DNA of 64,000 bases from an uncultured Candidatus Saccharibacteria bacterium (GCA_964495685.1 CAZBVQ010000002.1:107284-171283); one strand, 5' to 3'; shown: positions 13,575 to 64,000, numbered from the stretch's first letter. Notes: generated by a model not told the origin, from the letters alone. Translations and numbers: made by a program.

Positions 13575-13585
13575 GATATTTAAAT

Positions 13586-15348: not shown

Positions 15349-15352
15349 TGGT

Positions 15353-15901: not shown

Positions 15902-16016
15902 ATTGGTGAAGAAAGAAAGCGCCTTGAGGCGTAAATCTCTCGGTGCTTAGCCCCTCGTCTCAATCCTCACGCCACTGCGATGAGGACTGAGTCAGTGGCC
16001 AAGCCTTTTTGAAGGA

Positions 16017-17153: not shown

Positions 17154-17229
17154 AGTTTGTTATTGACTTCCCGAGAGGTTTTTGAGAGAATGGATTTATT
17201 GATGAATCTAATCTCTCCTCGGGGAGATT

Positions 17230-46995: not shown

Positions 46996-47697
46996 CTAAT
47001 CGTTGCTAAGATTGCTTGCCTTCATTAAGGCTAGAATCAAATTGCCACTGACGGCGACTGCATTTTCCACATTTATCGTCCGCTCGCCGTTGGTGCTCGA
47101 TCTTTGAGAAGTTGAAGCCTGCATTCCAAAGACTCTCCCATCAGTATCGAAAACCGGCCCGCCACTCATACCAAATAGACCCACGTCGCGAATCAGTTGC
47201 CCCGTATGAACTCGGACAACGCCTTGTTTGTCCACGATTTGAGATTCTGCAAAATCCAACAGAAACGAGGGCTGAAAATACCGGCGCACTTTGATGACAT
47301 TGATGCCGCCTTTCCCATCGGCCTCCAATGCGCTCAGTGGGTATCCTCCGATGCAGAGGCTCTTCCCAACATCACCTACCTCCGGTGACAGTTTCGCAAA
47401 GTCAGGGGTTTCAATATTTACTTTTCCCAAAAAAATATCTTTGCCCTGATCCCGTGCGACCTCTTCTATGGCTAACGACGGATTTACTACATTATCCGGA
47501 AGCCACCCCGGGAAAATGAACTGCGTATGGTCATTTTTGTTGCTGAAGACGTGTTCCACAGAGGCAAAAACACCGTGAGAATTGACAAAGAACCCCGTCC
47601 CAACTACGCCTATCGAGAGCTGGCCTGGCTGCAATTGGTCACACCTAAACACGGGGAACATTGCCCTTTGGATCTTCTTGATTCCCGCTACGAACAT
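46996..47697 (-). CDS. Trypsin-like (chymotrypsin-fold, S1) serine protease with no signal peptide
   Basis: His region GTGFFVNSHGVFASVEHV and Ser region GMSGGPVFDTDGRVFGM, with a candidate Asp in KDIFLGKV. No N-terminal hydrophobic signal sequence is present. Confidence 0.6.
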   Translation of the reverse strand: MFVAGIKKIQRAMFPVFRCDQLQPGQLSIGVVGTGFFVNSHGVFASVEHVFSNKNDHTQFIFPGWLPDNVVNPSLAIEEVARDQGKDIFLGKVNIETPDFAKLSPEVGDVGKSLCIGGYPLSALEADGKGGINVIKVRRYFQPSFLLDFAESQIVDKQGVVRVHTGQLIRDVGLFGMSGGPVFDTDGRVFGMQASTSQRSSTNGERTINVENAVAVSGNLILALMKASNLSND

Positions 47698-47766
47698 GTC
47701 GTGATTTATCCTCTAAATGTGACAAGTTGTAAACTTGTTGTTCTCTCCACACCGCCGACAATGCGA

Positions 47767-48339
47767 TCAAAGCCGATAATTCTCAATCAAGTCGCCCGGT
47801 CGGGGGCGGCGTAGAAGCGTCAAGGTAATATCGACCGTGACCGTTGCGCTTTCCTCGGGCTCGCCAAATTCTATCGTGTATTTACCCTCCGGCTCGTCCT
47901 CCGCTGGCAATTCCCTGACGATTCCAGCCATGCCAGCCAGCAAATCATGTGACGGGATGTCTGCAAGAAGTATAACGACCTGATTTTCCTCCAAAGGAAA
48001 CTCATCGCCGAATCGTGCACACCGCATCAAACCACGCTCTTGCTCCGGAAGGAGATTTTGCGCCGTGACCCAAACAGGTGTCTCGAACGATCCTTTGCCA
48101 GGCGGAAAACCGTATGCTGAATCAACAAAAATGGCAGCCGCCCGAAGCAAATTCGATGGAAGGTTCCTTGCTGGTAACGTCCCAGCGCGTTGTATTAACG
48201 CAGTCGCTAGATCATTTTGGTACTGAACATCACGCAGTCGTGCAAGGGCTTCAACCAACTGGACAAAACGTTGTTTTCGGGGTTTTGCGTCCTCCTCAGC
48301 CAACGCATCCGCAACCTCATTTACGGCAACTCGTTTCAT
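47767..48339 (-). CDS. Hypothetical protein (190 aa) upstream of the protease
   Basis: ORF with no motif recognised. It lies about 180 nt from the IS element on the opposite strand. Confidence 0.35.
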   Translation of the reverse strand: MKRVAVNEVADALAEEDAKPRKQRFVQLVEALARLRDVQYQNDLATALIQRAGTLPARNLPSNLLRAAAIFVDSAYGFPPGKGSFETPVWVTAQNLLPEQERGLMRCARFGDEFPLEENQVVILLADIPSHDLLAGMAGIVRELPAEDEPEGKYTIEFGEPEESATVTVDITLTLLRRPRPGDLIENYRL

Positions 48340-48515
48340 ATCTATTAAAAGCTAAAGGACTATGCACCAATCAGTCAATGCAACGTAGATCAAGACACAG
48401 GGCAGACGCATCTAAATGTTTTTTGAAAATGTGTTTGCAAGTGGTTCAATGGAGCCAGCTTGCGCGGCCCGATTTTAAGGTTCCCAAGCGCGCCGTTTTA
48501 TGATTCAAACTGGGG

Positions 48516-49676
48516 ATGCCAATTCATCCCAAACTCAGTTTGATCGAACATTTCCAAAACCTCCCCGATCCGCGCATCAACCGCACCAAGGATCACGACT
48601 TGATTGACCTGCTGGTCATCGCCGTCTGCACGCTGCTCTGCGCCGGTGAGTCCTTCAACGACATGGAGGATTTCGGCCACGCCAAGCACGACTGGTTCAA
48701 AACCTTTTTGCACTTGCGCAACGGAATTCCCAGTCACGACACCTTCAATCGCCTCTTCGCGGCATTGGCCCCGGCGGCATTTCTGGAGTGTTTCGTACGC
48801 TGGACGCAGAGCCTGCGGCAGGCGGTGACACAGGAGATCGTGGCGTTGGACGGCAAGGCGCTGCGCCGGGCCCTGTCCGGCGCGCAAAGTCTCAAGATCG
48901 TGGTGAGCGCGTGGGCGCAGAGCAACCGGCTGGTCTTGGGCCAACTCAAAGTGGACGCCAAAAGCAACGAGATCACCGCCGTGCCCGAGTTGTTGCGCGC
49001 GCTGGAACTGGCCGGCTGCATCGTCACCGTGGATGCCATGGGCTGCCAGAAGCAGATCGCCAAGGAAATCATGGAAGCGGATGCCGACTACGTGCTGGCA
49101 CTCAAAGGCAATCACGAAACGGTGCATCAAGAGGTCAAAAGTTTTCTGGACGCAACACGCGCGGAAGTCCAGCCGCCGCGACCGGTCGGGGCCAAACGGT
49201 CCGCGGCGGCGACGACGTTGGCGCAGTGTCAGACGGTGGAGAAAGACCACGGGCGGATCGAAACGCGGCGCTACTATCAGAGCGCAGCCTTGGAGTGGTT
49301 TGCCGATCGGGCCGAGTGGCCGGGGCTGCAAACGGTGGGGATGGTGGAAGCGATCCGGGAAGTGGGCGCTCAACGGACGGTGGAGCGACGGTATTATTTG
49401 TCGAGCCTGCCGCTGGGGGTGGAAACGTTTGCGCGGGCAGTGCGGGGGCATTGGAGCGTGGAAAACAGCCTGCACTGGGTGCTGGACGTGCAAATGCACG
49501 AAGACCAGAGCCGCGCGCGGGCGGGCTACGCGGCGGAAAATCTGGCGACGTTACGGCGGCTGGCGTTAAACCTATTGAAACGCGAGACGACCAAACGGCG
49601 CGGCATCCGGGGCAAGCAACTCAATGCCAGCTGGGACCATGCCTATCTGCTCCGCCTCCTCGACGGCGAAATTTAG
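48516..49676 (+). mobile_element. ISAs1-family (H-repeat-associated, DDE) transposase gene. The IS boundaries are not resolved
   Basis: N-terminal region RINRTKDHDLIDLLVIAVCTLLCAGESFNDMEDFG together with the C-terminal HWSVENSLHWVLDVQMHEDQSRARAGYAAENLATLRRLALNLLK block is diagnostic of ISAs1/IS1358-type transposases. GC is about 62% by eye. Two long overlapping ORFs in other frames are high-GC artefacts. Confidence 0.85.
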
Positions 49677-49810
49677 ATGCGTTTGCCCTGGATCAAGACA
49701 TGGCATGGCGTAAGAGATTGCCTCCTATTGCCAGTGAGGTGAGATTTAGTCAGGCCACAAGAAGGCGCAGCTCGTGCGGAACTGCGCTTCAATGTCAAAT
49801 GACCAGTGGA

Positions 49811-50032
49811 TTATCCCTTCTTTGCGGCTTTGATCTTGGCCCGGCGTGCCTGTTGAGCCGCCCGCATCTTTTTCTTGGTAGCCGCACTCATAGTGCGTTT
49901 CTTAACGGGCGCAGCATCAGGTGAACCGGAGCCAAGAATCGAGGCGAGTTCCTTTTCCAAACGGGCAATCTTCTCTTTGAGATTGGCAGCACGTCTCAAC
50001 TGTGCAGATGTTAACAATAATAGATTACTCAT
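49811..50032 (-). CDS. Small lysine/arginine-rich protein (73 aa) with a short coiled-coil
   Basis: KEKIARLEKELASILG followed by KKRTMSAATKKKMRAAQQARRAKIKAAKKG. It could be a nucleoid-protein-like or HU/H1-like tail. Confidence 0.3.
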   Translation of the reverse strand: MSNLLLLTSAQLRRAANLKEKIARLEKELASILGSGSPDAAPVKKRTMSAATKKKMRAAQQARRAKIKAAKKG

Positions 50033-50704
50033 ATTGACGGGAATGTATGCGGCGATTTCAAAAATGCAACATAGTCAAATTGCGAGAACAGGGCTCGAAA
50101 TTCCATCCCGTTGGCCACTCACTAGTGGCGTGGTCTGTTAAATACAAAGAACAGAACCCCAATGATTGCCGAGAGGACCAGACCGACGATCACCGCTGCC
50201 CAAAAGGCTCGCCTTTGTTTGCGCCGGAGACTGCGTGAGGAGCTACCAGACCCGTCAGACGTTCGCCGCTCTTTCATGGCGGCGAACCTTAGTTGTCCGG
50301 GTAACCATTGCAAAGGGTATTTGAATCACCGGGGCGCCGAGGTGTGCGCCGGTTGATCAATATAAAGGGACACCGTTTCCGATGTCCCTATTACCTCAGA
50401 TGATTTCGATCCGATGAGTTGTCCCGTCAATCGTCAGGTTGATGATGACTGGAGTCCCCACCTTCAAAACCACCATCAGGATTACGACTCTGAGTAGTGT
50501 TGTGTTATCCACAAAAACCACCTCCTTTCCGAGAATACATATCTGGCCTAAATCCCAAAACGACGGGTATTTTGCCCCTGTGTCACAGCCGGGTACTAAT
50601 GTGTCTCACATTCACTGAACACACGACTCACGCCGATACCGCATACGATCCTGAAAACTTTTGTTTGACCTTAAATCCAGCGGGCGATTAAAAATTCAAG
50701 CCGT

Positions 50705-51055
50705 ATGGAAAACGCGCGACCGCTTCCGAACGCAGAAGATTTGCAACGTCTGGTGGAACGCTTTCATCGGGCACGATGGGTTGGCGGCGTCAGTTTTGTT
50801 TCTCCCGAGCCATTCAAAATGGAATTCACCCTTCTTGGGCAACGGCGAATGCGACAGCTATTCGAGGCGCTCAAAGGTGCCACTGCGGAGAATTTTCCAG
50901 ACGGATCGGATCTTTGCGCAACCGACGCAGGCACAGCCATTATCAATCGATTTGCAGATGCCATGTCGGAGTTGTATCCGCCAGCGCTCTCGCCAGGGGA
51001 AAAGGAAACGCTTGTCGGTTTGACTATTGCATTTGGTAAGGAACGGCGCTGGTAG
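50705..51055 (+). CDS. Hypothetical protein (116 aa), first gene of a four-gene operon
   Basis: ORF overlapping the next gene. Confidence 0.35.
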   Translation: MENARPLPNAEDLQRLVERFHRARWVGGVSFVSPEPFKMEFTLLGQRRMRQLFEALKGATAENFPDGSDLCATDAGTAIINRFADAMSELYPPALSPGEKETLVGLTIAFGKERRW

Positions 51056-51554
51056 CTGCACCCAAGGCCCTATGACAATTCAAGAATATGCGGAACCAGA
51101 TTTACACGCTGTGGGTGAACGTATGCCGGCGATCAGCCCATCGTTTCACCTATGGGGTCACACATTTTCGCCGAAACGGGTGACCGAGGAAACCGGCGTG
51201 ATCTTTGCAAAAGCCAATGAGCCAGGCGAAATCAATGTGGCCGGACCTTTCCAGGGACGATCTCTTGATTATGGGCCGGGCTACGGCGCCGGAATTATCC
51301 GGGCACCCCAAACCATCTCCCGTAACGAACGGCTCAACTGGCTGCTTGAGAACGTCCTTGCAGGTTACACTCGCAAATTTCGAAAGGAGTATGGAATTGT
51401 TGAGGAGGTTCTATATTTCACAGCTCATTTTGCATTCAAGCAGCCCTGCTGTCTGATATTGCCGAATTGGCTGATACGATCAATCCCCACTGACGTTCCC
51501 GTCGTCATCACGTGCATTCAAGAAAACGATCCGCCAGACTCGTTCGCTGCCTAG
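51027..51554 (+). CDS. Hypothetical protein. The start is probably the internal Met MTIQEYAEP at 51072
   Basis: Second ORF of the operon. Confidence 0.35.
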   Translation: MHLVRNGAGSCTQGPMTIQEYAEPDLHAVGERMPAISPSFHLWGHTFSPKRVTEETGVIFAKANEPGEINVAGPFQGRSLDYGPGYGAGIIRAPQTISRNERLNWLLENVLAGYTRKFRKEYGIVEEVLYFTAHFAFKQPCCLILPNWLIRSIPTDVPVVITCIQENDPPDSFAA

Positions 51555-51557
51555 CCA

Positions 51558-51926
51558 ATGAATGATTATCGCGATTTCCTTCCATTCCTGAAAAAGGAGC
51601 TTTCTTCTCTTGAGCGGGAGCCGTTAGCCCTGTCGGCCGACGCCATTCTTGACGCGCTGAGCAGCAATGGTTCGGAGGCAGCTGATACCGCAGTCCGACA
51701 GTATGCTGCGACTCTTATCTGGCCCGCCATGTCGGATCGCGTTCGATTCGAGCTTTGCCTTCGCTTGCGAGTGGCCATCTGGTGGATTGAAAGCCTCAGC
51801 GACACATCAAGTGATGGCGAAGAATTGGGCGTCTTCTTGACGGACACGATGATCGACTATTGGCGAGATGTGGGGCGGACTGACTGGATTTGGAACCATT
51901 TTGTAAACCAAGACGTTTCGATCTAG
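51558..51926 (+). CDS. Hypothetical protein (122 aa)
   Basis: Third ORF, 4 nt after the previous stop. Confidence 0.35.
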   Translation: MNDYRDFLPFLKKELSSLEREPLALSADAILDALSSNGSEAADTAVRQYAATLIWPAMSDRVRFELCLRLRVAIWWIESLSDTSSDGEELGVFLTDTMIDYWRDVGRTDWIWNHFVNQDVSI

Positions 51927-51940
51927 CGAGCGAAAGTGAG

Positions 51941-52624
51941 ATGAACAAAAGAGCACAAGGGGTGTTGCCGACAGACGAGCAGATGCTCAAACTGAAAACT
52001 GAACTCAATTTTCTTTTCTGGACGACAGATGTCCCCGAGGTCCCGAGAGATTTTCCAGTCGCAGTCCAATTTCAGACGACACCGGAGCCAGCTAAAATCA
52101 ATATGCAGTGCACGAGCCATGCGATCGTAACCGCGGCAATTTTCATGGCCCTGAGTTTTGGCGTGACGACACGCGCAGGCATGGCCTTCGTATTGGACAC
52201 AAGCGCGGATGGCAATCCAGATAATGATTTCCTCAATCAGATCGGAAAACACTGGTGGATAACATTGGATGACCACGGCCTCGTGGATTTGAGTTTGAGT
52301 GCGGAAACCGAAAATCCACTGGTTTACTGCAATCGAAGTGTTAGCGGGAATTGGCGTGTTGCCTTCGGTAAAAACCAACAAGAGCTAAACGTCTTTCTAA
52401 AAGCACGACAGCGCGGCTGCTTTTATTTAACGGCTAACAAACAGAAAGCTACAGCGAGCGCGCTCACACAATCATTGGCACAGCCGGTTGCGCCCGCAAA
52501 GAAACACGGGATTCACATTCCCTATGCAAACATCGTTCGCCACTGTGAGGAACTACTTTCGGGCGCTGGGCAATCCCTGACCAGCACAGCCCAGGTCGAG
52601 GCGTGGCGTAAGCTCGCTTCCTAG
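51941..52624 (+). CDS. Hypothetical protein (about 228 aa, start MNKRAQGVL)
   Basis: Fourth ORF. The ORF-track start at 51890 would overlap the previous gene. An internal hydrophobic segment (AIVTAAIFMALSFGVTT) is present. Confidence 0.35.
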   Translation: MNKRAQGVLPTDEQMLKLKTELNFLFWTTDVPEVPRDFPVAVQFQTTPEPAKINMQCTSHAIVTAAIFMALSFGVTTRAGMAFVLDTSADGNPDNDFLNQIGKHWWITLDDHGLVDLSLSAETENPLVYCNRSVSGNWRVAFGKNQQELNVFLKARQRGCFYLTANKQKATASALTQSLAQPVAPAKKHGIHIPYANIVRHCEELLSGAGQSLTSTAQVEAWRKLAS

Positions 52625-52714
52625 TACCCCTACATCACGGGCTACATACATGGTCCGTAGGGGCGAGTGCCCGTCACGATTGACTGGCACGGCTTAACCG
52701 CCGCACCACTAGCT

Positions 52715-52844
52715 CCCCAACGTGTCGTCGGCTACCGCCCGACTTAACGCTTTTTCCCTTCGGGCTAACCGGGTGCAGTCCACTAGCCGATGTCCTTTAC
52801 CCAAAAGCGTTAAGTCGGCCATTATCCGCCGACACGTTGGGGGA
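52715..52844. repeat. 130-nt nested inverted repeat with outer 13-bp arms ccccaacgtgtcg/cgacacgttgggg, inner arms of about 15 bp cgacttaacgcttttt/aaaagcgttaagtcg, and a 47-nt core carrying a CCC-TTC-GGG hairpin. It is a candidate oriT or structured RNA
   Basis: Read directly. It lies in a 430-bp GC-rich ORF-poor gap upstream of the T4CP-like ATPase. Additional local stems are at 52636..52674 and 52890..52920. Confidence 0.5.
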
Positions 52845-53057
52845 CTGGTTTTAAGAGAAGGTGCTACCGCACCGACCACCATTTCGCTAACGCGACCGCT
52901 TCGCCTCGAAGGGCGGAGGTGACGACGGTCCCCACGACCGCACGAGTCTGGAAAAAGCGTTGCCGCGACTGCGGCACCTGAAAGGCAGTCGCGCCGACTG
53001 GCGCGTCAATTTGCTGCCCACCTTGGCAAGTTTTGGTGTCTATGCCTCTTTTCCCAA

Positions 53058-54509
53058 TTGGTATATCGTGGGTTTCCCTATTCGGATTTCACAACCAGTC
53101 GCCATTACCTCGCCGGCTTGCCCCAAACCGCAGTTGCCGACGTTTGCAGACAAGAGGGCTTGCGGCAGGGCCACATGAGAAGTCTAAACGACACGGGGAC
53201 TTTTGGTGTGGCAGGGGTGGCGACTGGTTTTGGCACCATGAATGACCACACCATCATAATCGGCGAGCGGCACGGCTGGGGTGATCCTCAGCGCTTTGGC
53301 ATATCTGCGGAGGATCAGCGCCAGCATATTTATATCATTGGAAAGACTGGCTCCGGCAAAACCACCTTGCTGCGCAATCTGATTTTGCAGCACATCGCAC
53401 TTGGGCACGGTGTTGGCCTGATTGATCCTCACGGTGATCTGGCCGAGGAACTGTTAACCCACATTCCACCGCATCGAGCGGATCATCTTGTGTATTTCAA
53501 TCCGGGTGATCTTGAGTTTCCGATTGGCCTCAACCTGCTTGCCGATGTTCTAGCCGATGACCGGCACCTTGTTGCTTCCGGCATCGTGGGTGCATTCAAA
53601 GGCATCTGGCGCGACTCATGGGGACCAAGACTGGAATATATCCTCTACAATACTGTGTCAGCATTGCTTGATTGTCGGAATGAGACGTTGCTGGGCGTCA
53701 ATCGGATGCTCACGGACGACACCTTTCGGGCCAAGGTCGTTCGCCAGATCAAAGACCCCTTCATCCGGGCGTTTTGGGCGGAGGAGTACGGCGGCTACGA
53801 CGAGCGTTTCAAGCGTGAGGCTATTGCGCCGATTCAAAACAAGGTCGGGCAGTTCCTGTTGAATCCAGTCGTGCGGAATATTCTCGGGCAGGTCAAAACT
53901 AAGGTGAAGATTCCCTTCATCATGGACAACCAGCGATTGTTCATCGCGAACCTTTCCAAAGGACGCCTTGGTCACGACAAAGCCAATCTACTCGGTTCCT
54001 TGCTGACGACCCAATTCGAGCTTGGCGCCATGGCGCGGTCGAATCGTCCTGAATCAGAGCGCCGTGACTTTTACCTGTTCATTGATGAGTTCCAGAATTT
54101 CTCAACCGACGCGTTTGCTTCCATCTTGGCGGAAGCTCGCAAGTATCGTTTATGCCTCACGCTCTCACATCAATACATTGACCAGCTACCACTGCCGATC
54201 CGGCAGGCCGTGTTTGGTAACGTGGGAACCCTTATCGCCTTTCGCATTGGGAACACCGATGCCGAGGTGATGGAAAAGGAGTTCGGCAAAACGTTTCCAG
54301 CGAGCGCCATCGCCGATCTTGACCGATATGACGCAATGGTGAAGTTGCTTCAAGACGGATCGAACTGGGAACCGTTCCGGGCGAAGATGCTGCCACCATT
54401 GGAGAATCGCATTGGCCGCAAGGACAAACTCATCGCCCTGTCACGAGAACGATTTGCCACGCCACGCGCCATCGTTGATGACAAACTGAATCGGTGGATA
54501 CAGGTATGA
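53058..54509 (+). CDS. TraD/TrwB-type (type IV coupling protein-like, FtsK/HerA superfamily) P-loop ATPase without an N-terminal TM anchor
   Basis: Walker A IIGKTGSGKTT, Walker B FYLFIDEFQNF and the sensor-like LTLSHQYIDQ. The ORF-track start is a TTG. Alternative ATG starts at 53175 and 53238 are equally plausible. Confidence 0.55.
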   Translation: MVYRGFPYSDFTTSRHYLAGLPQTAVADVCRQEGLRQGHMRSLNDTGTFGVAGVATGFGTMNDHTIIIGERHGWGDPQRFGISAEDQRQHIYIIGKTGSGKTTLLRNLILQHIALGHGVGLIDPHGDLAEELLTHIPPHRADHLVYFNPGDLEFPIGLNLLADVLADDRHLVASGIVGAFKGIWRDSWGPRLEYILYNTVSALLDCRNETLLGVNRMLTDDTFRAKVVRQIKDPFIRAFWAEEYGGYDERFKREAIAPIQNKVGQFLLNPVVRNILGQVKTKVKIPFIMDNQRLFIANLSKGRLGHDKANLLGSLLTTQFELGAMARSNRPESERRDFYLFIDEFQNFSTDAFASILAEARKYRLCLTLSHQYIDQLPLPIRQAVFGNVGTLIAFRIGNTDAEVMEKEFGKTFPASAIADLDRYDAMVKLLQDGSNWEPFRAKMLPPLENRIGRKDKLIALSRERFATPRAIVDDKLNRWIQV

Positions 54510-54688
54510 ACATTCCGTTGTCACTTGAAACAGATCCCTTAAATAGAGCCGGAGGTCCGACGATGCTTGCAACAGTCCCGGAATCTGAAGCTGAAGTGAA
54601 GACCTTGTACGTCTGGCGTTGGAGCATCGTTTTTAACTATCAGTTGACTTTAACGACGCATTTTATAATGTGCCGAAGCGATGTCTGA
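54494..54688 (+). CDS. Small ORF (64 aa, GTG start) bridging the ATPase and jetA with overlaps at both ends
   Basis: It overlaps the ATPase stop by 16 nt and the jetA start by 8 nt. It may be a spurious ORF in the other frame. Confidence 0.25.
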   Translation: MDTGMNIPLSLETDPLNRAGGPTMLATVPESEAEVKTLYVWRWSIVFNYQLTLTTHFIMCRSDV

Positions 54689-56105
54689 AGCATTTTGGCG
54701 CGGGGCGGTAAATCGGAGGGCGAAGAATCTCGCCTTGATGAAGCCCTTTTTCGAACTGGAGGATAACAAGGGTCTCCACTTGCAGTTTGACCTGAAGCCA
54801 TACGACATGCATTTGCTCTGCTCTGTGCTGATGGAGTCCATCATCGCTGAGATGGGGGGACTGATAGCCGGCGCACAATACAATGCCGTTTTACGCGAAC
54901 TCTCGAAAGTGGTTCTCAAAGTCAATCCCTCAGCTTCCGCCAGCGAAATAGACCGGATCGCAAGTCATATTATTGGCCATCTCACAAACGAGCGCGGTCG
55001 CAGCCATTTTGAAGCATCATATCAGACGATTCGTGACGATGGCAGTGTCGAGACACTGACCCATCCATTTCGACTCCTTGAGCAGCGGCTTTCACCTGAT
55101 GACGATTTAGTTTATATCGCCACCTCTGAGGCCATCCACATTTATTTGAGTGGTCTGGGTCAAGACCTGGAGGCAGAACAAGCAGCGAATGACGCCGTCT
55201 TAGACCATTATCTTCGGCGTGGCAAGCACCGCGAAGCCGGAGAAGCGGCCGACATGGCACGTAAACGCAGCATTGAGCTGCGTACCCGTCTGCGCGGCTG
55301 GCTCATTGCAGCAGAACGTAGTTTCGACGAAATCCACTATGCGCAAAGCGTCCTTCAGGAGCTTGCGCGGATGCTCCAGCATGTGGAAGATCGGGGTCAC
55401 GTCGAACAACGTCAAATCGAAGAGATTCAAGCCCGCGCACTTCAGTTGCCCCCAGGTGACGAGGGACGTAACACACTGGTTGGGGCCCGTAAAGCAATTG
55501 AGGTGTCTGCCGATGAGCACGTCCGCTTGCTGGCTGACTTGCAATGTTGCAGCCGCACGCTTCTGGATTGGCAATCGCACCACCGGTTTCGACGCGGTGA
55601 AAGTCCGGCGTTACCGGATCCGATAAACGAATTTCTTGAGCCGGTACTGCGACTTACCAGCGGGGAGTTCCTAAATTTCCTTCCGATGCTTTGGCCATTT
55701 GCGGTACCTCCTGCACTTCCAGTGCTGCCGGATTTGCCAGCATTGCTGGATTCCCTGTTGGCCGATACACGTGAGCGGCCAGAGATATCTGAACTCGATC
55801 CAATTGCGGAATCCTATGAGGAGATGGCGGCTCCAAAGCGATTTACTCCCGAGACATGTAAGGCGGTGGAGGAGTTGCTCGCCGGACTGGGCGGAAAGTT
55901 TTCCCTTTCTCAAGCACTGGGGGCCGTTGCAGAAAGATTTTCTTTGGACAGCCCTGAACTCGCCTATGTTGCTGTTCTTGTGCCGCAATGGTTCGAGCAC
56001 GAGCCAGGTGACGGCAAAGTGGCCCATCCCAAAGGATGCGAATTTGAAGCGGCTGGATTTTTTGGAGACGACCTCGCAGTGACAGCAGAAGGTGCCATAG
56101 TATGA
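54681..56105 (+). CDS. jetA: Wadjet JetA (MksF-like kleisin-type subunit)
   Basis: 474 aa, the first gene of a four-gene operon whose third gene is an SMC-like ATPase and whose fourth is a Toprim-type protein. Size and position match JetA. A 4-nt ATGA overlap with the next gene indicates translational coupling. No catalytic motif is expected in this subunit. Confidence 0.5.
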   Translation: MSEAFWRGAVNRRAKNLALMKPFFELEDNKGLHLQFDLKPYDMHLLCSVLMESIIAEMGGLIAGAQYNAVLRELSKVVLKVNPSASASEIDRIASHIIGHLTNERGRSHFEASYQTIRDDGSVETLTHPFRLLEQRLSPDDDLVYIATSEAIHIYLSGLGQDLEAEQAANDAVLDHYLRRGKHREAGEAADMARKRSIELRTRLRGWLIAAERSFDEIHYAQSVLQELARMLQHVEDRGHVEQRQIEEIQARALQLPPGDEGRNTLVGARKAIEVSADEHVRLLADLQCCSRTLLDWQSHHRFRRGESPALPDPINEFLEPVLRLTSGEFLNFLPMLWPFAVPPALPVLPDLPALLDSLLADTRERPEISELDPIAESYEEMAAPKRFTPETCKAVEELLAGLGGKFSLSQALGAVAERFSLDSPELAYVAVLVPQWFEHEPGDGKVAHPKGCEFEAAGFFGDDLAVTAEGAIV

Positions 56106-56830
56106 CATCGGACCAGGTCAACGCTATTTACGAAGCCTCACGCCTTCTTCGGATCGCGCTTAACCCACGCGAAACGGCCGCTCGCAGCGCTGAATATCAG
56201 CAACTTCTCCAACGATTCCATACGGATCCGGTTTTCCGCGACACCACTCGCCAGATTGCTCGCGGTCTTGAACTCCAGATATTCGAACTCGCCCGTGACC
56301 TTGGTCTGGCGATAGTTAATACCGCGGGTGGCCCCTACGCACCTACATTGAATGATTTCCGCACTTCGATGCGTCCCCGCGACCGCATTATTTACGGTCT
56401 GCTTCTAGCCATGTTGACTGCTTACGTATATCCCAATCGGCGAGCGCTAGGTGAACTTGATGACAGTTCGGTCGTTTCCATCGAGTTGCGCGGCTTAGTG
56501 GAATGGGCATCGAGCACAAGTCGGCAGATGAAGTCTGCTGCCAATATTGAGGATGTAGCCAATGAAGACATGCGTGCTGGGTTTGAAGCCATCGCCATAC
56601 TTGAGCCATTCGGGGATGGGCAAAACACCTTACAGCATCGTTTCCGCTTTACGTTGCAGTGGCTTGCCGATCGCGGACTGTTCCTCTATCGAGAGGAGGG
56701 AGGAAAGGAGCTGTGGGTAGCCCGCCCTCACTTCCGTGTCCAAGCCCGCCACCTCATGCAAAGCACGCATGACCGCTTGATTGAATATTTGGGTGCCCGC
56801 GCGGAAGATCCCCGGAACACCTCAACCTAA
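56102..56830 (+). CDS. jetB: Wadjet JetB (MksE-like subunit)
   Basis: 242 aa, second in the operon. Size and order match JetB/MksE. Confidence 0.5.
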   Translation: MTSDQVNAIYEASRLLRIALNPRETAARSAEYQQLLQRFHTDPVFRDTTRQIARGLELQIFELARDLGLAIVNTAGGPYAPTLNDFRTSMRPRDRIIYGLLLAMLTAYVYPNRRALGELDDSSVVSIELRGLVEWASSTSRQMKSAANIEDVANEDMRAGFEAIAILEPFGDGQNTLQHRFRFTLQWLADRGLFLYREEGGKELWVARPHFRVQARHLMQSTHDRLIEYLGARAEDPRNTST

Positions 56831-56836
56831 TCTGTC

Positions 56837-59800
56837 ATGGCCAAACTTCTTCGAGTTCATCTTGCCGGCGTTGGACATCCAGATGCCCGCTTCCACCCTT
56901 TGTCGTTACGTCTTGATCAGAAAGGGTTGCCGATGAATTCCGTGGTAAACCTTCGCAATGCTGGCGGCAAGACATCGCTCCTGTCCTTGATCTACGCTGT
57001 TCTCCTGCCAGGCAAGCATGATTTTCTGGGGAAGGTGAACAACAGCAACCGTACACTTGATGAAAACTTCAACCCAGGAAAACTGGGTGTCGTCGCGCTG
57101 GAAATGGAAAGCCAAGCGGGCCGATTCAGTCTGATCTTGGCGTGGGTGCGCCGGGAACGGGAGGACCCGCCCACACTCCTTTCGTTTCGTTCCGGTCGCG
57201 ATGGAATCGAGTTTGATACGCTGCCGATTCAAGGTTTGAGTTCGGCACCTGTGGCAACGCTGTCAGAACTTTTGAGCTGGCTCAATGATCGGCATAGCCG
57301 ATCACCAGGCAACGTAGATCTGTATGTCGCCTCCAACTTTCGCGAATGGCAACTTCATCTCAAAACGCAGCGGGGAGTTGATTCGTACCTTTACCGAAGT
57401 CATTTGCAAATGAACAAGGCGGAAGGCGCAGTGGACGAGGAATTTAAGTTCACAAAAACCAACGACTTCATTCGGCGTTATCTTGAATTCGCCGTCGAAC
57501 CGCCCACGATGGGTCGTGAAGCTGAAGATCCGGTAACGGCCAACCTCAATGAGCACCGCCACGCGCTCATGAAGCAGCCGCACTACCGGAAAGAGCAGGA
57601 ATTCATCCAGGAAATGGTGCCTCACCTACAGGAGTTGGATGGCCATGCGCAACGGAAACGAAACGCGGATTCGGAGCGAAATGCAGCCGTTTCTGAACTT
57701 CAACAGCATGCGGATGGGGTTTTGTTTCTGGAGTCAAAGTTTCGCGCGGACGAGAAAACATACGCGACCGACTATGTCACCAAAAAGGGAGAACGGGACG
57801 AATTGGTGCGAAAACGCGATAATGCGAAGCGTCACGCTGCTGGATATGATCGCCGGGGCAAGGAACTAAAAATCGACGAAGCTGAAAAGGCCCGGGCAGA
57901 TGCCCAGAATAAAGCCCAACAATGCCTTGAGCGGTTTCACTTGGTTTCCGCAGCAATGCTGTGGCGTGACGTTCGGGGCGCCAAGGTTATGCTTGCGGCA
58001 TTGGTGGAACAACGCGAGCAATTGGACCAGGAGCTTCGTCCGGAGTTGGAGGAGGTTCAGCGGCGCGCTCTCCGTCTAAGTGCCGCGTTTGAAGAAGCAA
58101 TTGAAAATGCTCAATTCGCCTTGGAGGAAGTTAACGAGCAGAATTTGCAGTTGGGAACAACTTTAAGCCAGCAGCGTAAGGAATTAAAAGAATTGGAAGC
58201 CAAATGGTCCACGCTCACCAATGAACTTAGCAAGATCAACGGGCAGATCGATTTGACGAACAAGGCACGTGCACGCCTTGTATCTGACAGAATCGTACAA
58301 CCGCGCGAGGAAGTATCCGATGCAGAGGCTCGGCTAGGCACTGAAATTCAAAAGTTTGACGAAACGGCCAAATCCCTCCGCAATGATGCCATTAACGCCC
58401 GTGGCCGGGCCGGGATTCATCGTGCGGAAGCCGAACGACTTTCGAAACTGGCTGAGCAGTCCAAGAATATTGCGGCACAAGCCCGCTCCGATATCGGTCG
58501 GTTCGAGAAAAACCGGGACGCTTGTGCCGACCTTGAAGCGGTGCAGGAAATTCTTGAAGGTGGCCCATTCGACCCGTTCAACCCGGGCGTTGTCGATGCG
58601 TTGCAAGGGAGGGAAAAAGGATACCGTCACCAGCTCCTTGCTTTGGGAATTGAAAGGGCCGAAGACAAACGTCTGATTGATCATTATGATGCCGATAAGC
58701 ATCCGCTTTTCCCAGTCCCGCGCGAGGTTGAAAACCTCCTCGTGCGATTACGCGACGAGCAAAAAATACGTGGGATTCTCACGGCTTACGAATGGTTAAG
58801 CGCCAACTTGCCAGTGGATCAGGCGCAAGTCCGTCTGCAATCGGATCCAGCCACCTATAGCGGTTTGGTCGCGAATACCCTGGCGGACCTGGAAGCCGCC
58901 ACACTGGCCTTTTCAAAGTTCCCACTTTCTCGCCCCGTCAAAATTACATTGTCCAGCACGCTGGCGGCTTTCACGAGCAATTCAACCGCCACCGTAATCC
59001 CGGAACGGGCCGGTCTTTTCAACTCTCAAGCAGCAACAGTCGAACGCGGACAAATTCTCGAACACCAAAGTCAACTGGATCGTCAAGAAATCGAACTCGC
59101 TCAAATGGCCGAGGCTTTTGGAACCGCGGCCAATCAGGTCGGGGGTTTCCAGAAAGAGTTCGTCGTTGACTGGATCGAAGAAAGACGACGTTCGTTGGCT
59201 GAGAATGAAGCACTGACGTTTCAACACAACGCTTCTGCTGCGGCAGAACAGTCATCGGTCAACAGTGCTGATCAGGAAGCGCAGCGAGCAGACGCAGAGG
59301 CTTCTAGTTGCGAGACAAAAGCGGGCAGCGCCAGAACACAACTTGCTCAAGTCATAGACTTCCGGAATAACTTTGGTAATCAACTGGGCGAATGGCTCAA
59401 GCGACAAAAAGAACTGGCCGATCAAATTGCTGCAAACCAAGCTGAGCGAGGCTTGGTGGACGCACGCATTCGCGATCTGGAATCTCACGTTCCTCAAATG
59501 GCGGAAAGAGCGCAGAAAGCCGGAGTCCGGGTGATTGAACTGCGCTTGGCAAAGAGCAACGCAAAGTTAAGCACTTATCTTCCGCCGGATCCTCCTCCGG
59601 TGGCTCACGGCGATATCACCACGGAAGAACTCCCTTTTACCACCGCCCGCGATACTTACGAAAACAAAGCCCGGAAGGGGCCTTTGGAAACCGCGATCAG
59701 TTCGGCCCAACAGAGGCTTACAAACTGTGAAGGAGCTTTTGCTCGCGATGGCCACGGGAAAACATCTGAGCACGTCGCTGCTCTCTCCGCGGCTCCAGAC

Positions 59801-61180
59801 CTGGACATACAGGTGGAAACGGCGAAAAGGGATGACATCAATGCCAAAACCACACTCGCCGTTGCGCAAAAAGAATTGTCTCTGGCCGAGAGGGAACGTC
59901 CCAAGCCGTTGGGTGTCAATGAGCGTGCTGACCTTGATCCAGACCTGCCTGAACCCGTGACTGCGGCGGAGGCAATACAGATTAAGGACGAGAAGCTGCA
60001 GATCATGAGTGATTTTCATGATCAAGCAGAGGCCTTGCGAGATATCGTGAGCGAGCTGGAAAACAAGCAGCGGGAGGCCAAGTCGGTTGCCGATCAGTAT
60101 CGGAACATGGCGGACTTAACTTCCCCTGCGCGAGCTGCCGAGCCAAAGGAATATCAGGGATTAGTTGGCAATCCTGACAGAGATCGTGACCACATCAGGT
60201 CTGTGAAGCGGCGCTATGAAGATGCCAAAAAACTTCACGAGGAGCTTGCCGCAAAGATGGAACGCATCCACGACAATCACATCGAGATACTGGTGAAGCA
60301 CGAAAAATGGGATCGCTTTACGGTTGATATTCGTGACCGTTTGCGTCGGTTCACCCGTGCTGATTATGAGGCAAATACGATTCAGCTGATTCAGGATTGC
60401 AATGAACGCAAGGCTGGGTTGGAGGCGAAGCTGCAGGAGATCGAAAAAGTCAGGGGTGTGCTAATTGACCAGCTCTACAATCGTGCGAATGAGGCACTGC
60501 GTTCACTTGAGCACGCAGCCCGCCTAAGTCGGATGCCGGAAGGAGTTGGTGCGTGGTCTGGCCAGCCATTTCTGAAAGTACATGTTCCGGCCCGAGCTCC
60601 CCAGGCCGAGCGCCGCGTTCTATTAAGTCGCTTGATGGATTCGTGGATGTCGCCCCAAAAGAAGGACATGACCATCCCCCGCGGAGCCGAGCTCGCTTAT
60701 GAGTGTCTGATCGCCGTCATGAATCAACGGGAAATCGATATCGAAATCCTCAAGCCTGAAGCTTTTGATCCATTGGTTTGCAATTACCAGCCGGTGACAA
60801 AGCTTGCATCCTTTTCCGGTGGCCAGCGCGTGACGGCAGCCATCCTCCTATATTGCGTCATTGTTCGGGTTCGATCTGACCAGGGCGATATTTTGACCGA
60901 CTGTGGTTTCTTGATGCTCGACAATCCTTTTGGCAAGGCCAGTCATTTCCCCTTGGTGGAACTGCAATTGAAGATGGCTAACGTAATGGGAGTGCAGTTG
61001 ATTTACATGACCGGGATCAATGATCTGGAAGCCCTAGCGTCGTTCCCATTACGTTTGCGTCTCCGTAACAGCGCGCGTAATACGGCAAATGGCGAGCGCG
61101 TGGTCCAGCACGAATTACATACGGTCGAAGCAGTCCGCCTTGGTGAATCCGCCCCAAATGGAAACGCAACTCGTTCTTGA
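56837..61180 (+). CDS. jetC: Wadjet JetC, an SMC/MukB-like ABC-type ATPase (1447 aa)
   Basis: N-terminal Walker A LRNAGGKTSLLSLIY, a central coiled coil of about 1000 aa rich in E/A/R/Q/L, and a C-terminal ABC signature FSGGQRVTAAILLY with Walker B/D-loop FLMLDNPFGKAS. Confidence 0.75.
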   Translation: MAKLLRVHLAGVGHPDARFHPLSLRLDQKGLPMNSVVNLRNAGGKTSLLSLIYAVLLPGKHDFLGKVNNSNRTLDENFNPGKLGVVALEMESQAGRFSLILAWVRREREDPPTLLSFRSGRDGIEFDTLPIQGLSSAPVATLSELLSWLNDRHSRSPGNVDLYVASNFREWQLHLKTQRGVDSYLYRSHLQMNKAEGAVDEEFKFTKTNDFIRRYLEFAVEPPTMGREAEDPVTANLNEHRHALMKQPHYRKEQEFIQEMVPHLQELDGHAQRKRNADSERNAAVSELQQHADGVLFLESKFRADEKTYATDYVTKKGERDELVRKRDNAKRHAAGYDRRGKELKIDEAEKARADAQNKAQQCLERFHLVSAAMLWRDVRGAKVMLAALVEQREQLDQELRPELEEVQRRALRLSAAFEEAIENAQFALEEVNEQNLQLGTTLSQQRKELKELEAKWSTLTNELSKINGQIDLTNKARARLVSDRIVQPREEVSDAEARLGTEIQKFDETAKSLRNDAINARGRAGIHRAEAERLSKLAEQSKNIAAQARSDIGRFEKNRDACADLEAVQEILEGGPFDPFNPGVVDALQGREKGYRHQLLALGIERAEDKRLIDHYDADKHPLFPVPREVENLLVRLRDEQKIRGILTAYEWLSANLPVDQAQVRLQSDPATYSGLVANTLADLEAATLAFSKFPLSRPVKITLSSTLAAFTSNSTATVIPERAGLFNSQAATVERGQILEHQSQLDRQEIELAQMAEAFGTAANQVGGFQKEFVVDWIEERRRSLAENEALTFQHNASAAAEQSSVNSADQEAQRADAEASSCETKAGSARTQLAQVIDFRNNFGNQLGEWLKRQKELADQIAANQAERGLVDARIRDLESHVPQMAERAQKAGVRVIELRLAKSNAKLSTYLPPDPPPVAHGDITTEELPFTTARDTYENKARKGPLETAISSAQQRLTNCEGAFARDGHGKTSEHVAALSAAPDLDIQVETAKRDDINAKTTLAVAQKELSLAERERPKPLGVNERADLDPDLPEPVTAAEAIQIKDEKLQIMSDFHDQAEALRDIVSELENKQREAKSVADQYRNMADLTSPARAAEPKEYQGLVGNPDRDRDHIRSVKRRYEDAKKLHEELAAKMERIHDNHIEILVKHEKWDRFTVDIRDRLRRFTRADYEANTIQLIQDCNERKAGLEAKLQEIEKVRGVLIDQLYNRANEALRSLEHAARLSRMPEGVGAWSGQPFLKVHVPARAPQAERRVLLSRLMDSWMSPQKKDMTIPRGAELAYECLIAVMNQREIDIEILKPEAFDPLVCNYQPVTKLASFSGGQRVTAAILLYCVIVRVRSDQGDILTDCGFLMLDNPFGKASHFPLVELQLKMANVMGVQLIYMTGINDLEALASFPLRLRLRNSARNTANGERVVQHELHTVEAVRLGESAPNGNATRS

Positions 61181-62183
61181 AGCGGTTCAAGCCGCTATGC
61201 CGTCGGGGCGCACGCAGACCGATGTATTGTCTGTTTTTAATGCTCTTGCTGAACGCATGCCTCGATTGAAAACCGATCAGAACCGATGGGAGACTTTCGT
61301 CGATCTCCTAGGCGCCGCCGAAACGGAGGGACTCATTGTCCTGCCTTCACGCCTCGGGGCTGGATGGAACCAGGAGGTTATGCCAGCTCGACCCCAGTGG
61401 ATAAGACTTGCATTAACCAGAGAGCCTAGGGAAGTGTTTAACCATCGCGGGTTTCCGTGGAACTCCGCTCTCTCATTCCTGGCCGGAGAGAGAAGTCTGC
61501 CAACAGGAATTCGTGATGCCGCCGTCTCGATCCAGCAGTTCTTCGCCACGAATGGTCTGTCCCGACCGTTCGTTCCCGTCAAAGAACGGTCATTCGCAAT
61601 TTTTGGTGAGGAGAAACGGCTTGGCGCGCTCCAACACTCCGAGATTCTGTTCGGTCCTGGAAAATTGTCGCTCGAACAATTGCGCTGCTATGTGGTCGAG
61701 CCGACGCCCGTGACGGAACGATTTGATCAGGGTCACGGGATCATAGTTTTGGAAAACGAAGCCACCTTCGACTCATTTTGCCGGCTTTGTCGGCACACAC
61801 CCGCCTACCAACTCGTGGTCTATGGCCGCGGCCATGAAATCCAGAAATGCGCCGCTTATCTCAACCGCGAAGCCAGCCGATTGGGTGTTACAGAAATGTT
61901 TTACTTCGGCGACATTGACCGACGCGGCCTGGAAATCCCCTATCAACTGGCACATGACCCAGCCACCAAGGTGAAAGTCATACCCTTGCTTTTGGCTTAT
62001 AAGTTCCTCCTACGCCGTACCGCCTCTGCACCCTGTCATGTTTCTGAGGCTTGCCTGTGGTTACCCGAGCCATTAGCCACTTTGGCTGCAACCGTAATAG
62101 CTGAAGCAGGTCGCATCCCGCAAGAAGCATTCGGTTGGGAAGACATTTCGACAACTTATGGCATCGATCCTTTTATTACATAA
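61158..62183 (+). CDS. jetD: Wadjet JetD (Toprim/topoisomerase-VI-A-like nuclease subunit)
   Basis: The C-terminal region IIVLENEATFDSF ... VVYGRGHE ... MFYFGDIDRRGLEI matches the JetD/MksG Toprim-like layout (E ... DxD). The start is uncertain (61089, 61158 or 61197). The 61158 start would overlap the jetC stop by 23 nt. Confidence 0.6.
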   Translation: METQLVLEAVQAAMPSGRTQTDVLSVFNALAERMPRLKTDQNRWETFVDLLGAAETEGLIVLPSRLGAGWNQEVMPARPQWIRLALTREPREVFNHRGFPWNSALSFLAGERSLPTGIRDAAVSIQQFFATNGLSRPFVPVKERSFAIFGEEKRLGALQHSEILFGPGKLSLEQLRCYVVEPTPVTERFDQGHGIIVLENEATFDSFCRLCRHTPAYQLVVYGRGHEIQKCAAYLNREASRLGVTEMFYFGDIDRRGLEIPYQLAHDPATKVKVIPLLLAYKFLLRRTASAPCHVSEACLWLPEPLATLAATVIAEAGRIPQEAFGWEDISTTYGIDPFIT

Positions 62184-62992
62184 TGGGCAATCGAACAAAC
62201 ACTGACAATTGGACCGCTCGTGAGCGTTTGGTGCATATTGAACGCCTTGCTTATTGGCGCGGTTGGCTACGGCGAGGGGATCTTTGTGCTCGGTTTGAAA
62301 TATCCATATCTCAAGCCTCGGCGGATCTTGCGGCCTACATGCGATTGAATCCTGGGGCCCTCCATTATGACAGCAGCGCCAAACAATACGTTGGGGCCCC
62401 TAACATGTCTTGCCGACTGGTGACGCCGACTCTCGAAGATGCATTGCCCTTCATCGCTGTATCCAAACTCGTCGCATTTTCTGAGCATGACCAAATTGTC
62501 CGCATTGATCTGCCCCATCGGTGTGTTCCGCCACGCGCGGCACGCGACATTATACGGGCTATTGCCAATAAGTTGTCTTTGGAAATTTATTATTTCTCGA
62601 TTCACTCCGCGACCGAACAGTGGCGCCGGATTTCCCCCCATGCGCTCGCCCACGATGGCTATCGCTGGCATGTAAGAGCGTGGTGTCACCAAGGTAATGA
62701 ATATAAGGATTTTGTCCTTGGCCGAATCGGTAAAACTCGTTCCCTTGCAAGTGAAGGTGTGTCGCCCAAGCCTGATGAGGACTGGATAACATGGGTCACA
62801 TTGCATTTGCGGCCATACCGACGATTGTCATCAGTACAACGAAAAGCGATTGAACACGACTATGCGATGAGCGGTGGAATTACCGCTCTTAAAGTTCGGA
62901 AGGCAATGCTGATTTACACACTTTCCTATCTCCGGCTCACTCCAGAGATGGCAGAATTGGCGCGCCATTTGGAGGTTGTTAAATTTGACTGA
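62183..62992 (+). CDS. WYL-domain transcriptional regulator (wHTH plus WYL, BrxR/CapW-like)
   Basis: N-terminal wHTH (WTARERLVHIERLAYWRGWLRRGDLCARFEISISQASADLAAY) and WYL core HDGYRWHVRAWCHQGNEYKDFVLGRI. Its ATG overlaps the jetD stop (TAATG). Confidence 0.6.
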   Translation: MGNRTNTDNWTARERLVHIERLAYWRGWLRRGDLCARFEISISQASADLAAYMRLNPGALHYDSSAKQYVGAPNMSCRLVTPTLEDALPFIAVSKLVAFSEHDQIVRIDLPHRCVPPRAARDIIRAIANKLSLEIYYFSIHSATEQWRRISPHALAHDGYRWHVRAWCHQGNEYKDFVLGRIGKTRSLASEGVSPKPDEDWITWVTLHLRPYRRLSSVQRKAIEHDYAMSGGITALKVRKAMLIYTLSYLRLTPEMAELARHLEVVKFD

Positions 62993-63065
62993 CAAGCCTG
63001 TGTTCACTCATGACTCACCCGCCCGGCCAAGCTGGGTGTTGGTCAATCGTTTCCAGTACGTCGGG

Positions 63066-63551
63066 CTATCTCTCCCATCGTCCGCAATACGCCTCGTTGA
63101 AATGCTTCACCAGTTTCCAATATTTTTCAGGGTCAGTTTCCTTCATGGTCAAAAGCTCCGCCAGTTTGGCTGAAGCTCCAATCATGAGTTTCTTCATCTC
63201 GTCATCCGTGATGCGCGAAAGCTCCGGCTTTTCCAGAAGTTCTGAGTATTTGCCGGCGTGCAGTTCTTCAATGTAACCATTTCGAAATGCACAGCACGTC
63301 AGAGCATTGGCTTCTTCCCTTTTTGTCCACGAGCGTTCCATATCCATGATGGACGAAATTTTAGCAGAAATAATCAACGCCGGCAATGTGTGCTGCCAGC
63401 AAAACGACACCGCTAACGAATCAGTGAGTCCACTGTTTTCTTGAGCGAATATGAAATCAGTTCGAGGAAGCTTGGGAACTTGCCTCAAGCGGCAAACCCT
63501 GACGCCTACTGTCTCCGCTTTGCATCCGCCATGATGGTGCGATGCAATCAC
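63066..63551 (-). CDS. Hypothetical protein. The start is probably the internal Met MDMERSW, giving about 92 aa
   Basis: ORF with an acidic helical C-terminus. Confidence 0.25.
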   Translation of the reverse strand: MIASHHHGGCKAETVGVRVCRLRQVPKLPRTDFIFAQENSGLTDSLAVSFCWQHTLPALIISAKISSIMDMERSWTKREEANALTCCAFRNGYIEELHAGKYSELLEKPELSRITDDEMKKLMIGASAKLAELLTMKETDPEKYWKLVKHFNEAYCGRWER

Positions 63552-63590
63552 GCCTTCCCCGCTTCAATCGCGCTTCCACGGTTGCTCCCA

Positions 63591-64000
63591 TGCAACTCAC
63601 GGAGCGCGACCGCGAAATCATCCGGCTCGTCCACCGGCATCGTTTTCTCCGTTCCCCACATATCGTGGCGCTCATTGGCGGCAGTCAACAGCAGGTCTTG
63701 CGAAGATTGCATTTGCTCTACCATCACGGTTTTTTGGAGCGGCCCCGCACACAGATCGACTCATATTACAAAATCGGCTCCCGCCCCATTGCCTACGGGT
63801 TAGGAAACAAAGGTGGGATGCTTTTGCGGCAGGAGTTTGGTGTTAATCCCCGTGAAATATCTTGGAGTGAAAAGAACAGTTCCGTTGGCCGGACATTCCT
63901 TGAGCACGCGCTTTTTGTTTCGGATGTGATGGTCGCGATTGAACTCGCCTGCCGGGCGCGCGGGATTCGCCTTGTGGCCGAGCATGAGCTTGCCATTCCG
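63591..64000 (+). CDS. Replication-relaxation family protein, N-terminal part. The gene runs off the window end
   Basis: My own translation from ATG 63591 reads MQLTERDREIIRLVHRHRFLRSPHIVALIGGSQQQVLRRLHLLYHHGFLERPRTQIDSYYKIGSRP..., which is the characteristic N-terminus of plasmid/ICE replication-relaxation proteins. It is not in the ORF track because no stop lies in the window. Confidence 0.6.

Follow-up and report, generated by a model that had tools for sequence, protein, structure and literature searches.

The type III class of the Wadjet anti-plasmid systems was reportedly set out by Doron et al. in 2018, with its prototype in Bacillus thuringiensis. Type I Wadjet (MksBEFG) systems, from Escherichia coli GF4-3, from Pseudomonas aeruginosa PA14 and from Corynebacterium glutamicum, are the only ones that have been mechanistically dissected. 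The roles of the Wadjet subunits have been described, circular DNAs below ~50-100 kb are restricted, and anti-plasmid activity is known only for type I and for other types when expressed heterologously (PMC10586767). BrxR and CapW are palindrome-binding repressors that single-stranded DNA (ssDNA) releases, and their association with defence systems, including Wadjet, has already been published (PMC9122601, PMC11662680). Wadjet has been expected to be constitutive, yet it is often accompanied by CapW/BrxR, as pointed out previously (PMC11662680). Here we describe a locus at positions 54681-62992 of a stretch of 64,000 nucleotides (nt) filed under an uncultured Candidatus Saccharibacteria bacterium (GCA_964495685.1 CAZBVQ010000002.1:107284-171283; hereafter the window). 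We read it as a complete, intact type III Wadjet operon, jetABCD, with a gene for a BrxR/CapW-family repressor, brxR, as its fifth and last gene. By analogy the system would restrict plasmids, and brxR would be expected to autoregulate the operon; we hold this reading, taken as a whole, to be probable.

Five coupled genes and their products

The locus consists of five consecutive open reading frames (ORFs) on the + strand, in which neighbouring stop and start codons overlap or nearly touch (Table 1). The ATG of jetB overlaps the TGA of jetA (ATGA), and 6 nt separate the jetB stop from the jetC start. The jetD ORF opens at 61089 (364 amino acids, aa), and an alternative ATG at 61158, which gives 341 aa and an overlap of 23 nt with jetC, corresponds to the start in most homologues. 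The mechanical brxR ORF opens at a TTG (62135; 285 aa), and the ATG at 62183, which has one base in common with the jetD TAA (TAATG), gives the 269 aa found in public gene calls and in homologues. Coupling of the genes is tight throughout, and brxR directly adjoins jetD. ORFs of 474-1447 aa with strong family matches are far too unlikely to have arisen by chance. The guanine + cytosine (GC) fraction is 0.533 in the operon, 0.536 across positions 48000-64000 and 0.463 across positions 1-47000.

Table 1. Window coordinates of the operon, its upstream block and nearby genes
Feature	Coordinates	Strand	Description
jetA	54681-56105	+	type III kleisin subunit (JetA3), 474 aa; PADLOC match
jetB	56102-56830	+	KITE subunit of type III, divergent but JetB3-like, with tandem winged helices, 242 aa
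jetC	56837-61180	+	type III SMC-family ABC ATPase (JetC3), 1447 aa; PADLOC match
jetD	61158-62183	+	Toprim nuclease subunit of type III (JetD3), 341 aa; PADLOC, Pfam JetD_C
brxR	62183-62992	+	BrxR/CapW-family transcriptional repressor (winged helix-turn-helix, wHTH; WYL; WCX), 269 aa
Upstream block	54624-54675	+	candidate promoter and candidate BrxR operator; conservation across loci
P-loop ATPase	53058-54509		TraD/TrwB/VirD4-like or HerA-like; TrwB_AAD_bind E 3.9e-11, SXT_TraD E 1.1e-12, PADLOC mad8 E 4.6e-16
Transposase	48516-49676		ISAs1-type; DDE_Tnp_1_assoc and DDE_Tnp_1
Peptidase	46996-48339	-	trypsin-like; Trypsin_2 E 2.6e-9; adjoins a protein of 190 aa that weakly matches DUF4926
NYN-domain protein	43695-44300		

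Three of the four Jet proteins were identified directly with the PADLOC models. JetA matched JetA3 (PDLC00567, E 1.5e-62), with residues 5-470 aligned to positions 8-482 of the 504 in the profile, and homologues of 471-473 aa occupy the same slot in related operons, which identifies it as the predicted kleisin subunit of a Wadjet complex. JetC matched JetC3 (PDLC00579, E 1.2e-127; residues 2-1427 on positions 3-1429 of 1453). It has the layout of the Wadjet structural maintenance of chromosomes (SMC) subunit, with an N-terminal Walker A motif (NAGGKTS, aa 41-47, nt 56957-56977), a C-terminal signature (FSGGQR, aa 1326-1331, nt 60812-60829) and Walker B motif (FLMLDNPFG, aa 1358-1366, nt 60908-60934), and a long arm between them. 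JetD matched JetD3 (PDLC00594, E 1e-52; the best type 1 models gave E 3e-6) and Pfam JetD_C (29.2 bits against a cutoff of 22). In JetD, the motifs ENEATFD (nt 61752-61772) and YFGDIDRRG (nt 61902-61928) are present, and E199, E201, D252 and D254 (E-x-E and DxD) are invariant in 30 homologues. An AlphaFold2 model of JetD, with a predicted local distance difference test score (pLDDT) of 91.8, had as its best Foldseek matches Topo VI-A (9o7o_A, E 4.2e-4) and the MksG nuclease of C. glutamicum (8b7f_A, E 7.1e-4), and a profile search against PDB sequences gave a sub-threshold alignment to the Spo11 Toprim (E 0.91). Motifs and predicted fold both point to a Toprim nuclease subunit of the JetD/MksG kind, encoded beside the SMC genes. 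All significant PADLOC matches of JetA and JetC were to type 3 models; similarity to type III subunits exceeded that to type I or II subunits, which assigns the predicted complex to type III. With JetB, the set of components is complete, and the catalytic motifs are intact.

JetB is more divergent, and its assignment runs through its relatives. A direct PADLOC scan with E up to 10 gave no match for JetB, the same scan of five related verrucomicrobial JetB proteins gave nothing useful, and a profile search against PDB sequences returned designed helical repeats only, with nothing significant. A profile of 27 JetB homologues recovered 448 representatives among 1.84 billion proteins; when the window JetB and 52 sampled relatives were scanned, 11 of these 53 sequences matched PADLOC JetB3 and none matched another family. 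The JetB3 of Bacillales matches the JetB3 models (E 4.7e-122) and Pfam DUF6063. Aligned to it with hhalign, a broad JetB profile gave a probability of 92.9% (E 3.8e-7) and a narrow profile of 12 sequences gave 1%. Fold matches of the JetB model were MukE/JetB/Nse1-like, including the JetB structures 8dk1 and 8as8. Transitive homology, profile-profile comparison and predicted fold together identify JetB as a JetB3-like KITE subunit. This JetB family is missed by the current Pfam and PADLOC models, and we found no description of it in the literature; annotation pipelines probably under-call type III systems that carry it.

An initial annotation of the window, made from its sequence, had already proposed four coupled genes of these sizes in the order of a Wadjet operon, quoted the Walker A, FSGGQR and LMLDNPFG motifs of JetC, and predicted a Toprim fold for JetD. 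All of this is borne out, including by the PADLOC subtype comparison and the structure prediction that it had recommended. It had also placed JetC at the long end for its family, as a type II/III-like variant. The type III likeness stands, but the length is ordinary: the PADLOC JetC3 profiles span 1451-1486 positions, and Bacillales JetC proteins have 1469-1493 aa. Finally, it had held that failure of JetA and JetB to match Pfam DUF3375 and DUF4194 would speak for a plain condensin or an unrelated SMC system. Taken literally, this is what happened, as neither protein matched; the test is invalid for type III systems, however, because the type III JetA of Bacillales has no Pfam match and its JetB matches DUF6063.

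A BrxR lineage at the 3' ends of Wadjet operons

The product of the fifth gene matched Acinetobacter BrxR (7T8K, E 3.5e-43; residues 8-258 aligned to residues 7-263) and CapW (9C5G, E 8.6e-38) at near full length in a phmmer search of PDB sequences. Its precomputed Pfam domains, WHD_BrxR, WYL and BrxR_CTD, are the three of the family architecture, and a library scan gave Pfam WYL at E 4.4e-12. The ssDNA contacts of CapW are a Ser, an RWHVR motif and a further Arg (PMC11662680). In the window protein, S139, R161-WHV-R165 and R181 are present, and they are conserved in eight of eight clade members. The gene is predicted to encode a full-length BrxR/CapW-family repressor with intact ligand-contact residues. 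The initial annotation had described a WYL regulator that starts on the jetD stop codon and is fused to the operon. The start is as stated and the family can now be named as BrxR/CapW; the fusion holds for the overlapping stop and start codons, not for the proteins.

Homologues of JetD came almost all from Verrucomicrobiota/Opitutae, and a terminal brxR is found in ~11 verrucomicrobial type III operons with differing neighbours. The arrangement jetABCD-brxR is retained at JetD identities of 78%, 67%, 63-59% and 48%, with flanking genes that vary from locus to locus, and in eight of eight clade loci the brxR start lies at most 2 nt from the jetD stop. More distant verrucomicrobial type III operons have no brxR and carry other genes in its place.

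The same association emerged from the BrxR side, in a metagenome scan in which relatives with usable upstream DNA were counted. Among BrxR relatives of at least 47% identity, seven of nine lie directly after jetD, in four type III and three type I operons. Locus L071 (1394-8795; metagenome contig Ga0209201_1000044) is a complete type I operon, JetA1-B1-C1-D1 by PADLOC, that ends in a BrxR 58% identical to that of the window. In L073 and L074, JetD1 is followed by BrxR on contigs that are cut upstream. The remaining two of the nine are L076, where the gene is divergent beside a type IIG restriction-modification gene, and L069, where it lies beside unknown genes. Below ~45% identity, only the BrxR of L095 follows jetD (338 nt of upstream DNA on its contig), and none of the ~48 such relatives with at least 600 nt of upstream DNA does so. 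One sub-lineage of BrxR is therefore mostly attached to the 3' ends of Wadjet operons of two types, I and III. The initial annotation had called the placement of the regulator inside the operon unusual. It does differ from that of the characterised BrxR and CapW genes, but it is no one-off, as it recurs in type III and type I Wadjet. In the literature we found no description of a brxR that is terminal and translationally coupled, nor of the recurrence of this arrangement across types I and III together with a common upstream block.

This block precedes jetA and reads gcaTCGTTTTTAACtatcag-TTGACT-TTAACGACGc in the window, followed by TAATGT/TATAAT; its TTGACT occupies positions 54644-54649, 31 nt from the jetA ATG. 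In eight of eight distinct BrxR-terminated type III loci that were aligned, TTGACT is invariant, stops 29-32 nt short of the jetA ATG and has AAACGA- or TTTAAC-like direct repeats on its flanks. The block also precedes the type I jetA1 of L071 (aaaaacgacctgTTGACTttaacggcg), and two motif patterns matched at these sites only, across 147 loci (~1.5 Mb). Because L071 has the BrxR lineage of the window but another Jet type, the block is most likely part of the regulator module, serving as a promoter -35 element and candidate operator. The block and the BrxR lineage co-occur, which suggests autoregulation from one promoter. In L075, a more distant BrxR-terminated type III operon, an inverted repeat at 344-375 with 13-bp arms, GTAGTAATTGACT-atcggt-AGTCAAATACTAC, ends 24 nt before jetA, and each arm contains TTGACT; it is a plausible candidate BrxR operator with TTGACT in each half-site. 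A terminator scan of the regulatory region gave counts at shuffle expectation. We also considered a leaderless jetA mRNA, from the spacing of 29-32 nt between TTGACT and ATG. This does not apply to L071, where the start lies 71 nt downstream, and such an mRNA is kept as a weak possibility only.

Some of the related loci have features of their own. In L012 (37% JetD identity), a 306-aa gene at 10972-11892 overlaps the end of jetD where brxR would be. Its product has a weak match to Peptidase_U49 (Lit-like; E 0.0026, 17.9 bits against a Pfam threshold of 23.9), and an AbiEii/DUF6088 pair and a serine recombinase gene come after it. In L018, at 5349-7042, a gene for an XhoI-family restriction endonuclease (E 5.9e-87) and an ORF that looks DNA methyltransferase-like by its translated sequence come directly after a distant type III Wadjet, which would make a Wadjet plus a restriction-modification pair. 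In L002, the relative of 78% identity, an unknown gene of 448 aa and jetABCD-brxR form a block that is flanked by fragments of an RCC1/WD40_RLD-repeat gene (1378-1758 and 11908-12354) and looks like an insertion into a gene for a repeat protein; the 448-aa product shows no homology to the ATPase upstream of the operon in the window.

Proposed regulation and competing explanations

By analogy to type I, JetABC would load on DNA, translocate along or extrude it, recognise small circles by their shape and license a JetD dimer to cut them, so that plasmids and other circular elements would be restricted. The five genes are probably on one transcript that would start at the TTGACT block, perhaps with a very short leader or no leader at all. 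As the last product to be translated, BrxR would bind as a dimer at or next to the block and hold the operon and its own gene at a low set-point. Release by ssDNA or DNA damage has been demonstrated for CapW (PMC11662680); by the same token, ssDNA or another signal of DNA damage or invasion may bind the WYL domain of BrxR, release it and raise Wadjet expression.

Several observations weigh against the reading of the locus as an autoregulated type III Wadjet. The close relatives L008 and L009 (53% JetD identity) have no brxR, jetD being followed by mraZ, so brxR is dispensable. BrxR and CapW bind palindromes, while the upstream block of the window holds no strong one: its flanking AAACGA-like elements are direct repeats, an inverted-repeat scan gave one 11-nt palindrome over the -10 area, and a custom palindrome scan gave 6-7 of 9 dyads only, at no conserved position. 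A generic sigma-70 scan reported no promoter at the block. Neither Pfam nor NCBIfam has a match for JetA, JetB or JetC (NCBIfam gave none for any of the four Jet proteins, and Pfam gave JetD_C and WYL only over the operon proteins), and phmmer searches of JetC and JetD against PDB sequences gave nothing significant. The Walker B of JetC has Asn after Asp (LDNPFG), where the catalytic Glu is usual. In the literature searched, we found no experimental data on any type III Wadjet.

The lack of Pfam and NCBIfam matches was considered as an argument against Wadjet and rejected, since JetA and JetC of Bacillales type III systems likewise have no Pfam matches. The Walker B of type I JetC carries a catalytic Glu (EQ mutants). 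In type III, the form hhhhD-N-P-(F/L)-G was present in all JetC proteins examined (window, L002, L005, L010, L012, L013, L017, L019, L020, L023-L025, L031 and L034), and is thus common to verrucomicrobial and Bacillales systems; it is presumably akin to the D-T-P-L-G of DndD-type ATPases. Because D-N is found in every JetC examined, the ATPase cycle of type III may not mirror that of type I.

One alternative is that the operon has no part in defence and encodes an MksBEF-type condensin that organises the chromosome, or else some unrelated SMC system. The atypical Walker B and the absence of Pfam matches to Wadjet or Muk families would fit; however, an MksBEF condensin has no Toprim nuclease gene, whereas here the 3' end of jetC overlaps with a gene of the JetD/MksG type, and the best matches are all to type III Wadjet models. 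The cassette, moreover, lies among mobile-element genes, moves between unrelated contexts and carries a defence-associated regulator, and we give this explanation hardly any weight. Granting that the operon is a Wadjet, BrxR might control neighbouring genes, such as those of the mobile element downstream, or itself alone, and merely ride at the operon end. BrxR-family genes are normally upstream of the genes that they control, and surveys of brxR have focused on systems lying downstream of it (PMC9122601). Mobile-element genes do come after brxR in the window, a defence-island-like set (CoiA-like nuclease, DUF3800, nSTAND3) comes after it in L005-L007, and the want of a strong palindrome before jetA would be explained. 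The genes 3' of brxR, however, vary in every locus, whereas jetD on its 5' side is constant. The conserved non-coding block is upstream of jetA, not downstream of brxR, and recurs in a type I operon that has nothing but the BrxR lineage in common, and the start/stop overlap ties brxR expression to jetD. We regard such a passenger role as unlikely.

BrxR could also be a working part of the Wadjet machine, a sensor of DNA or ssDNA that gates JetD or JetABC through protein contacts. It is translationally coupled and fixed in position in the manner of a complex subunit, its WYL ligand-contact residues are kept, and its lineage is mainly found with Wadjet of two types. Against this, the whole of BrxR, wHTH included, aligns with the demonstrated repressors BrxR and CapW, its close relatives also occur in the divergent arrangement of L076 and beside the unrelated genes of L069, and operon relatives do without it (L008/L009, L012 and L018-L021). 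We consider this role very improbable, and retain the reading of BrxR as the repressor of a type III Wadjet operon.

A further step from that reading is that the Wadjet-dedicated BrxR lineage and the TTGACT promoter/operator could form a portable bracket, with the operator before jetA and the repressor last, that has moved between, or been retained across, types I and III. We put this forward tentatively, with rather more doubt than belief. If true, the bracket would bring under autoregulation, with ssDNA or DNA damage as inducer, an anti-plasmid system for which constitutive expression is the usual assumption, and it may matter for a Wadjet carried on an integrative mobile element that forms circles on excision.

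Genomic setting and relation to known systems

Upstream of the operon lie genes for an ISAs1-type transposase and a TraD/TrwB/HerA-like ATPase. The transposase gene is in the 2-kb bin with the highest GC of the window (0.571, 48001-50000), where GC shifts from ~0.46 to ~0.53. The ATPase was considered as a sixth component of the system and rejected, as no homologue of it lies beside the cassette in other related loci; only L001, which is the window's own sequence, has it. The trypsin-like peptidase, DUF4926-like and NYN genes may be additional ones of defence or toxin type at the island edge. Running on past the window end, L001 (where coordinate + 51157 = window coordinate) has at 12433-17626, downstream of brxR, genes for Replic_Relax, a DnaG-like Zn-ribbon/Toprim primase and an ArdC-MPTase-RadC protein. 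These are followed by housekeeping-looking glycosyltransferase, radical SAM and tRNA-synthetase genes, and the end of the mobile element is probably ~5 kb beyond that of the window. There is no tRNA gene in the window, and we found no integrase and no island borders. A search for a contig with the empty site found none, all contigs with the flanking NYN gene having the same arrangement. With tblastn, JetC gave only distant partial matches to plasmids (no more than 36% identity, and only across a portion of JetC). Gene content supports a mobile-element setting. The initial annotation had proposed an island of high GC with genes of plasmids and integrative and conjugative elements. The GC is as stated, and the island is supported by gene content only (ATPase, transposase, Replic_Relax, primase and ArdC).

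Type III Wadjet is a published class, and the co-localisation of BrxR and Wadjet was already known. The new points are refinements within known kinds and leave the general picture of Wadjet and BrxR unchanged. In the literature searched there is no solved structure or dissected mechanism for a type III Wadjet, and this compact, intact verrucomicrobial example is a usable entry point; good homologue depth and the confident JetD model help such work. The recurrent jetABCD-brxR arrangement with its common block is also a concrete case for transcriptional control of an anti-plasmid SMC nuclease.

With the BrxR/CapW repressors (Acinetobacter BrxR 7T8K, E. fergusonii BrxR and CapW of cyclic oligonucleotide-based antiphage signalling systems), the window protein shares the three domains, RWHVR and the ssDNA-contact residues. 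By contrast, its gene is the last, translationally coupled gene of the presumed target operon instead of lying upstream, and its candidate operator is not an obvious 20-bp palindrome. With type I Wadjet, the locus shares the architecture of kleisin, KITE, SMC and Toprim nuclease; its JetB model is like JetB 8dk1/8as8 and its JetD model like MksG 8b7f, and some type I operons likewise have a terminal BrxR from this lineage and the block before jetA (L071). Sequence similarity to type I is nevertheless very low, JetC is ~340 aa longer, and JetD matches JetD1 models at residues 215-289 only, the type I N-terminal region being undetected.

The closest described class is type III Wadjet. The window operon has its four subunit families, with full-length matches to JetA3, JetC3 and JetD3, a JetC of ~1450 aa whose Walker B (LDNPFG) and signature region match those of Bacillales JetC, and a short JetD3, a Toprim protein of ~340 aa. 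It differs from the class in lineage, the window lineage belonging to Verrucomicrobiota (Opitutae-like) and the prototype side to Bacillota, and in a JetB too divergent for a direct match to JetB3 or DUF6063. Gene order differs as well: the window and all verrucomicrobial relatives have jetA-B-C-D, whereas the Bacillales loci that were retrieved have jetD-A-B-C (L023-L025, L031 and L034 read jetD-jetA-jetB-jetC, with overlapping junctions). To these differences the window operon adds an extra fifth gene, brxR.

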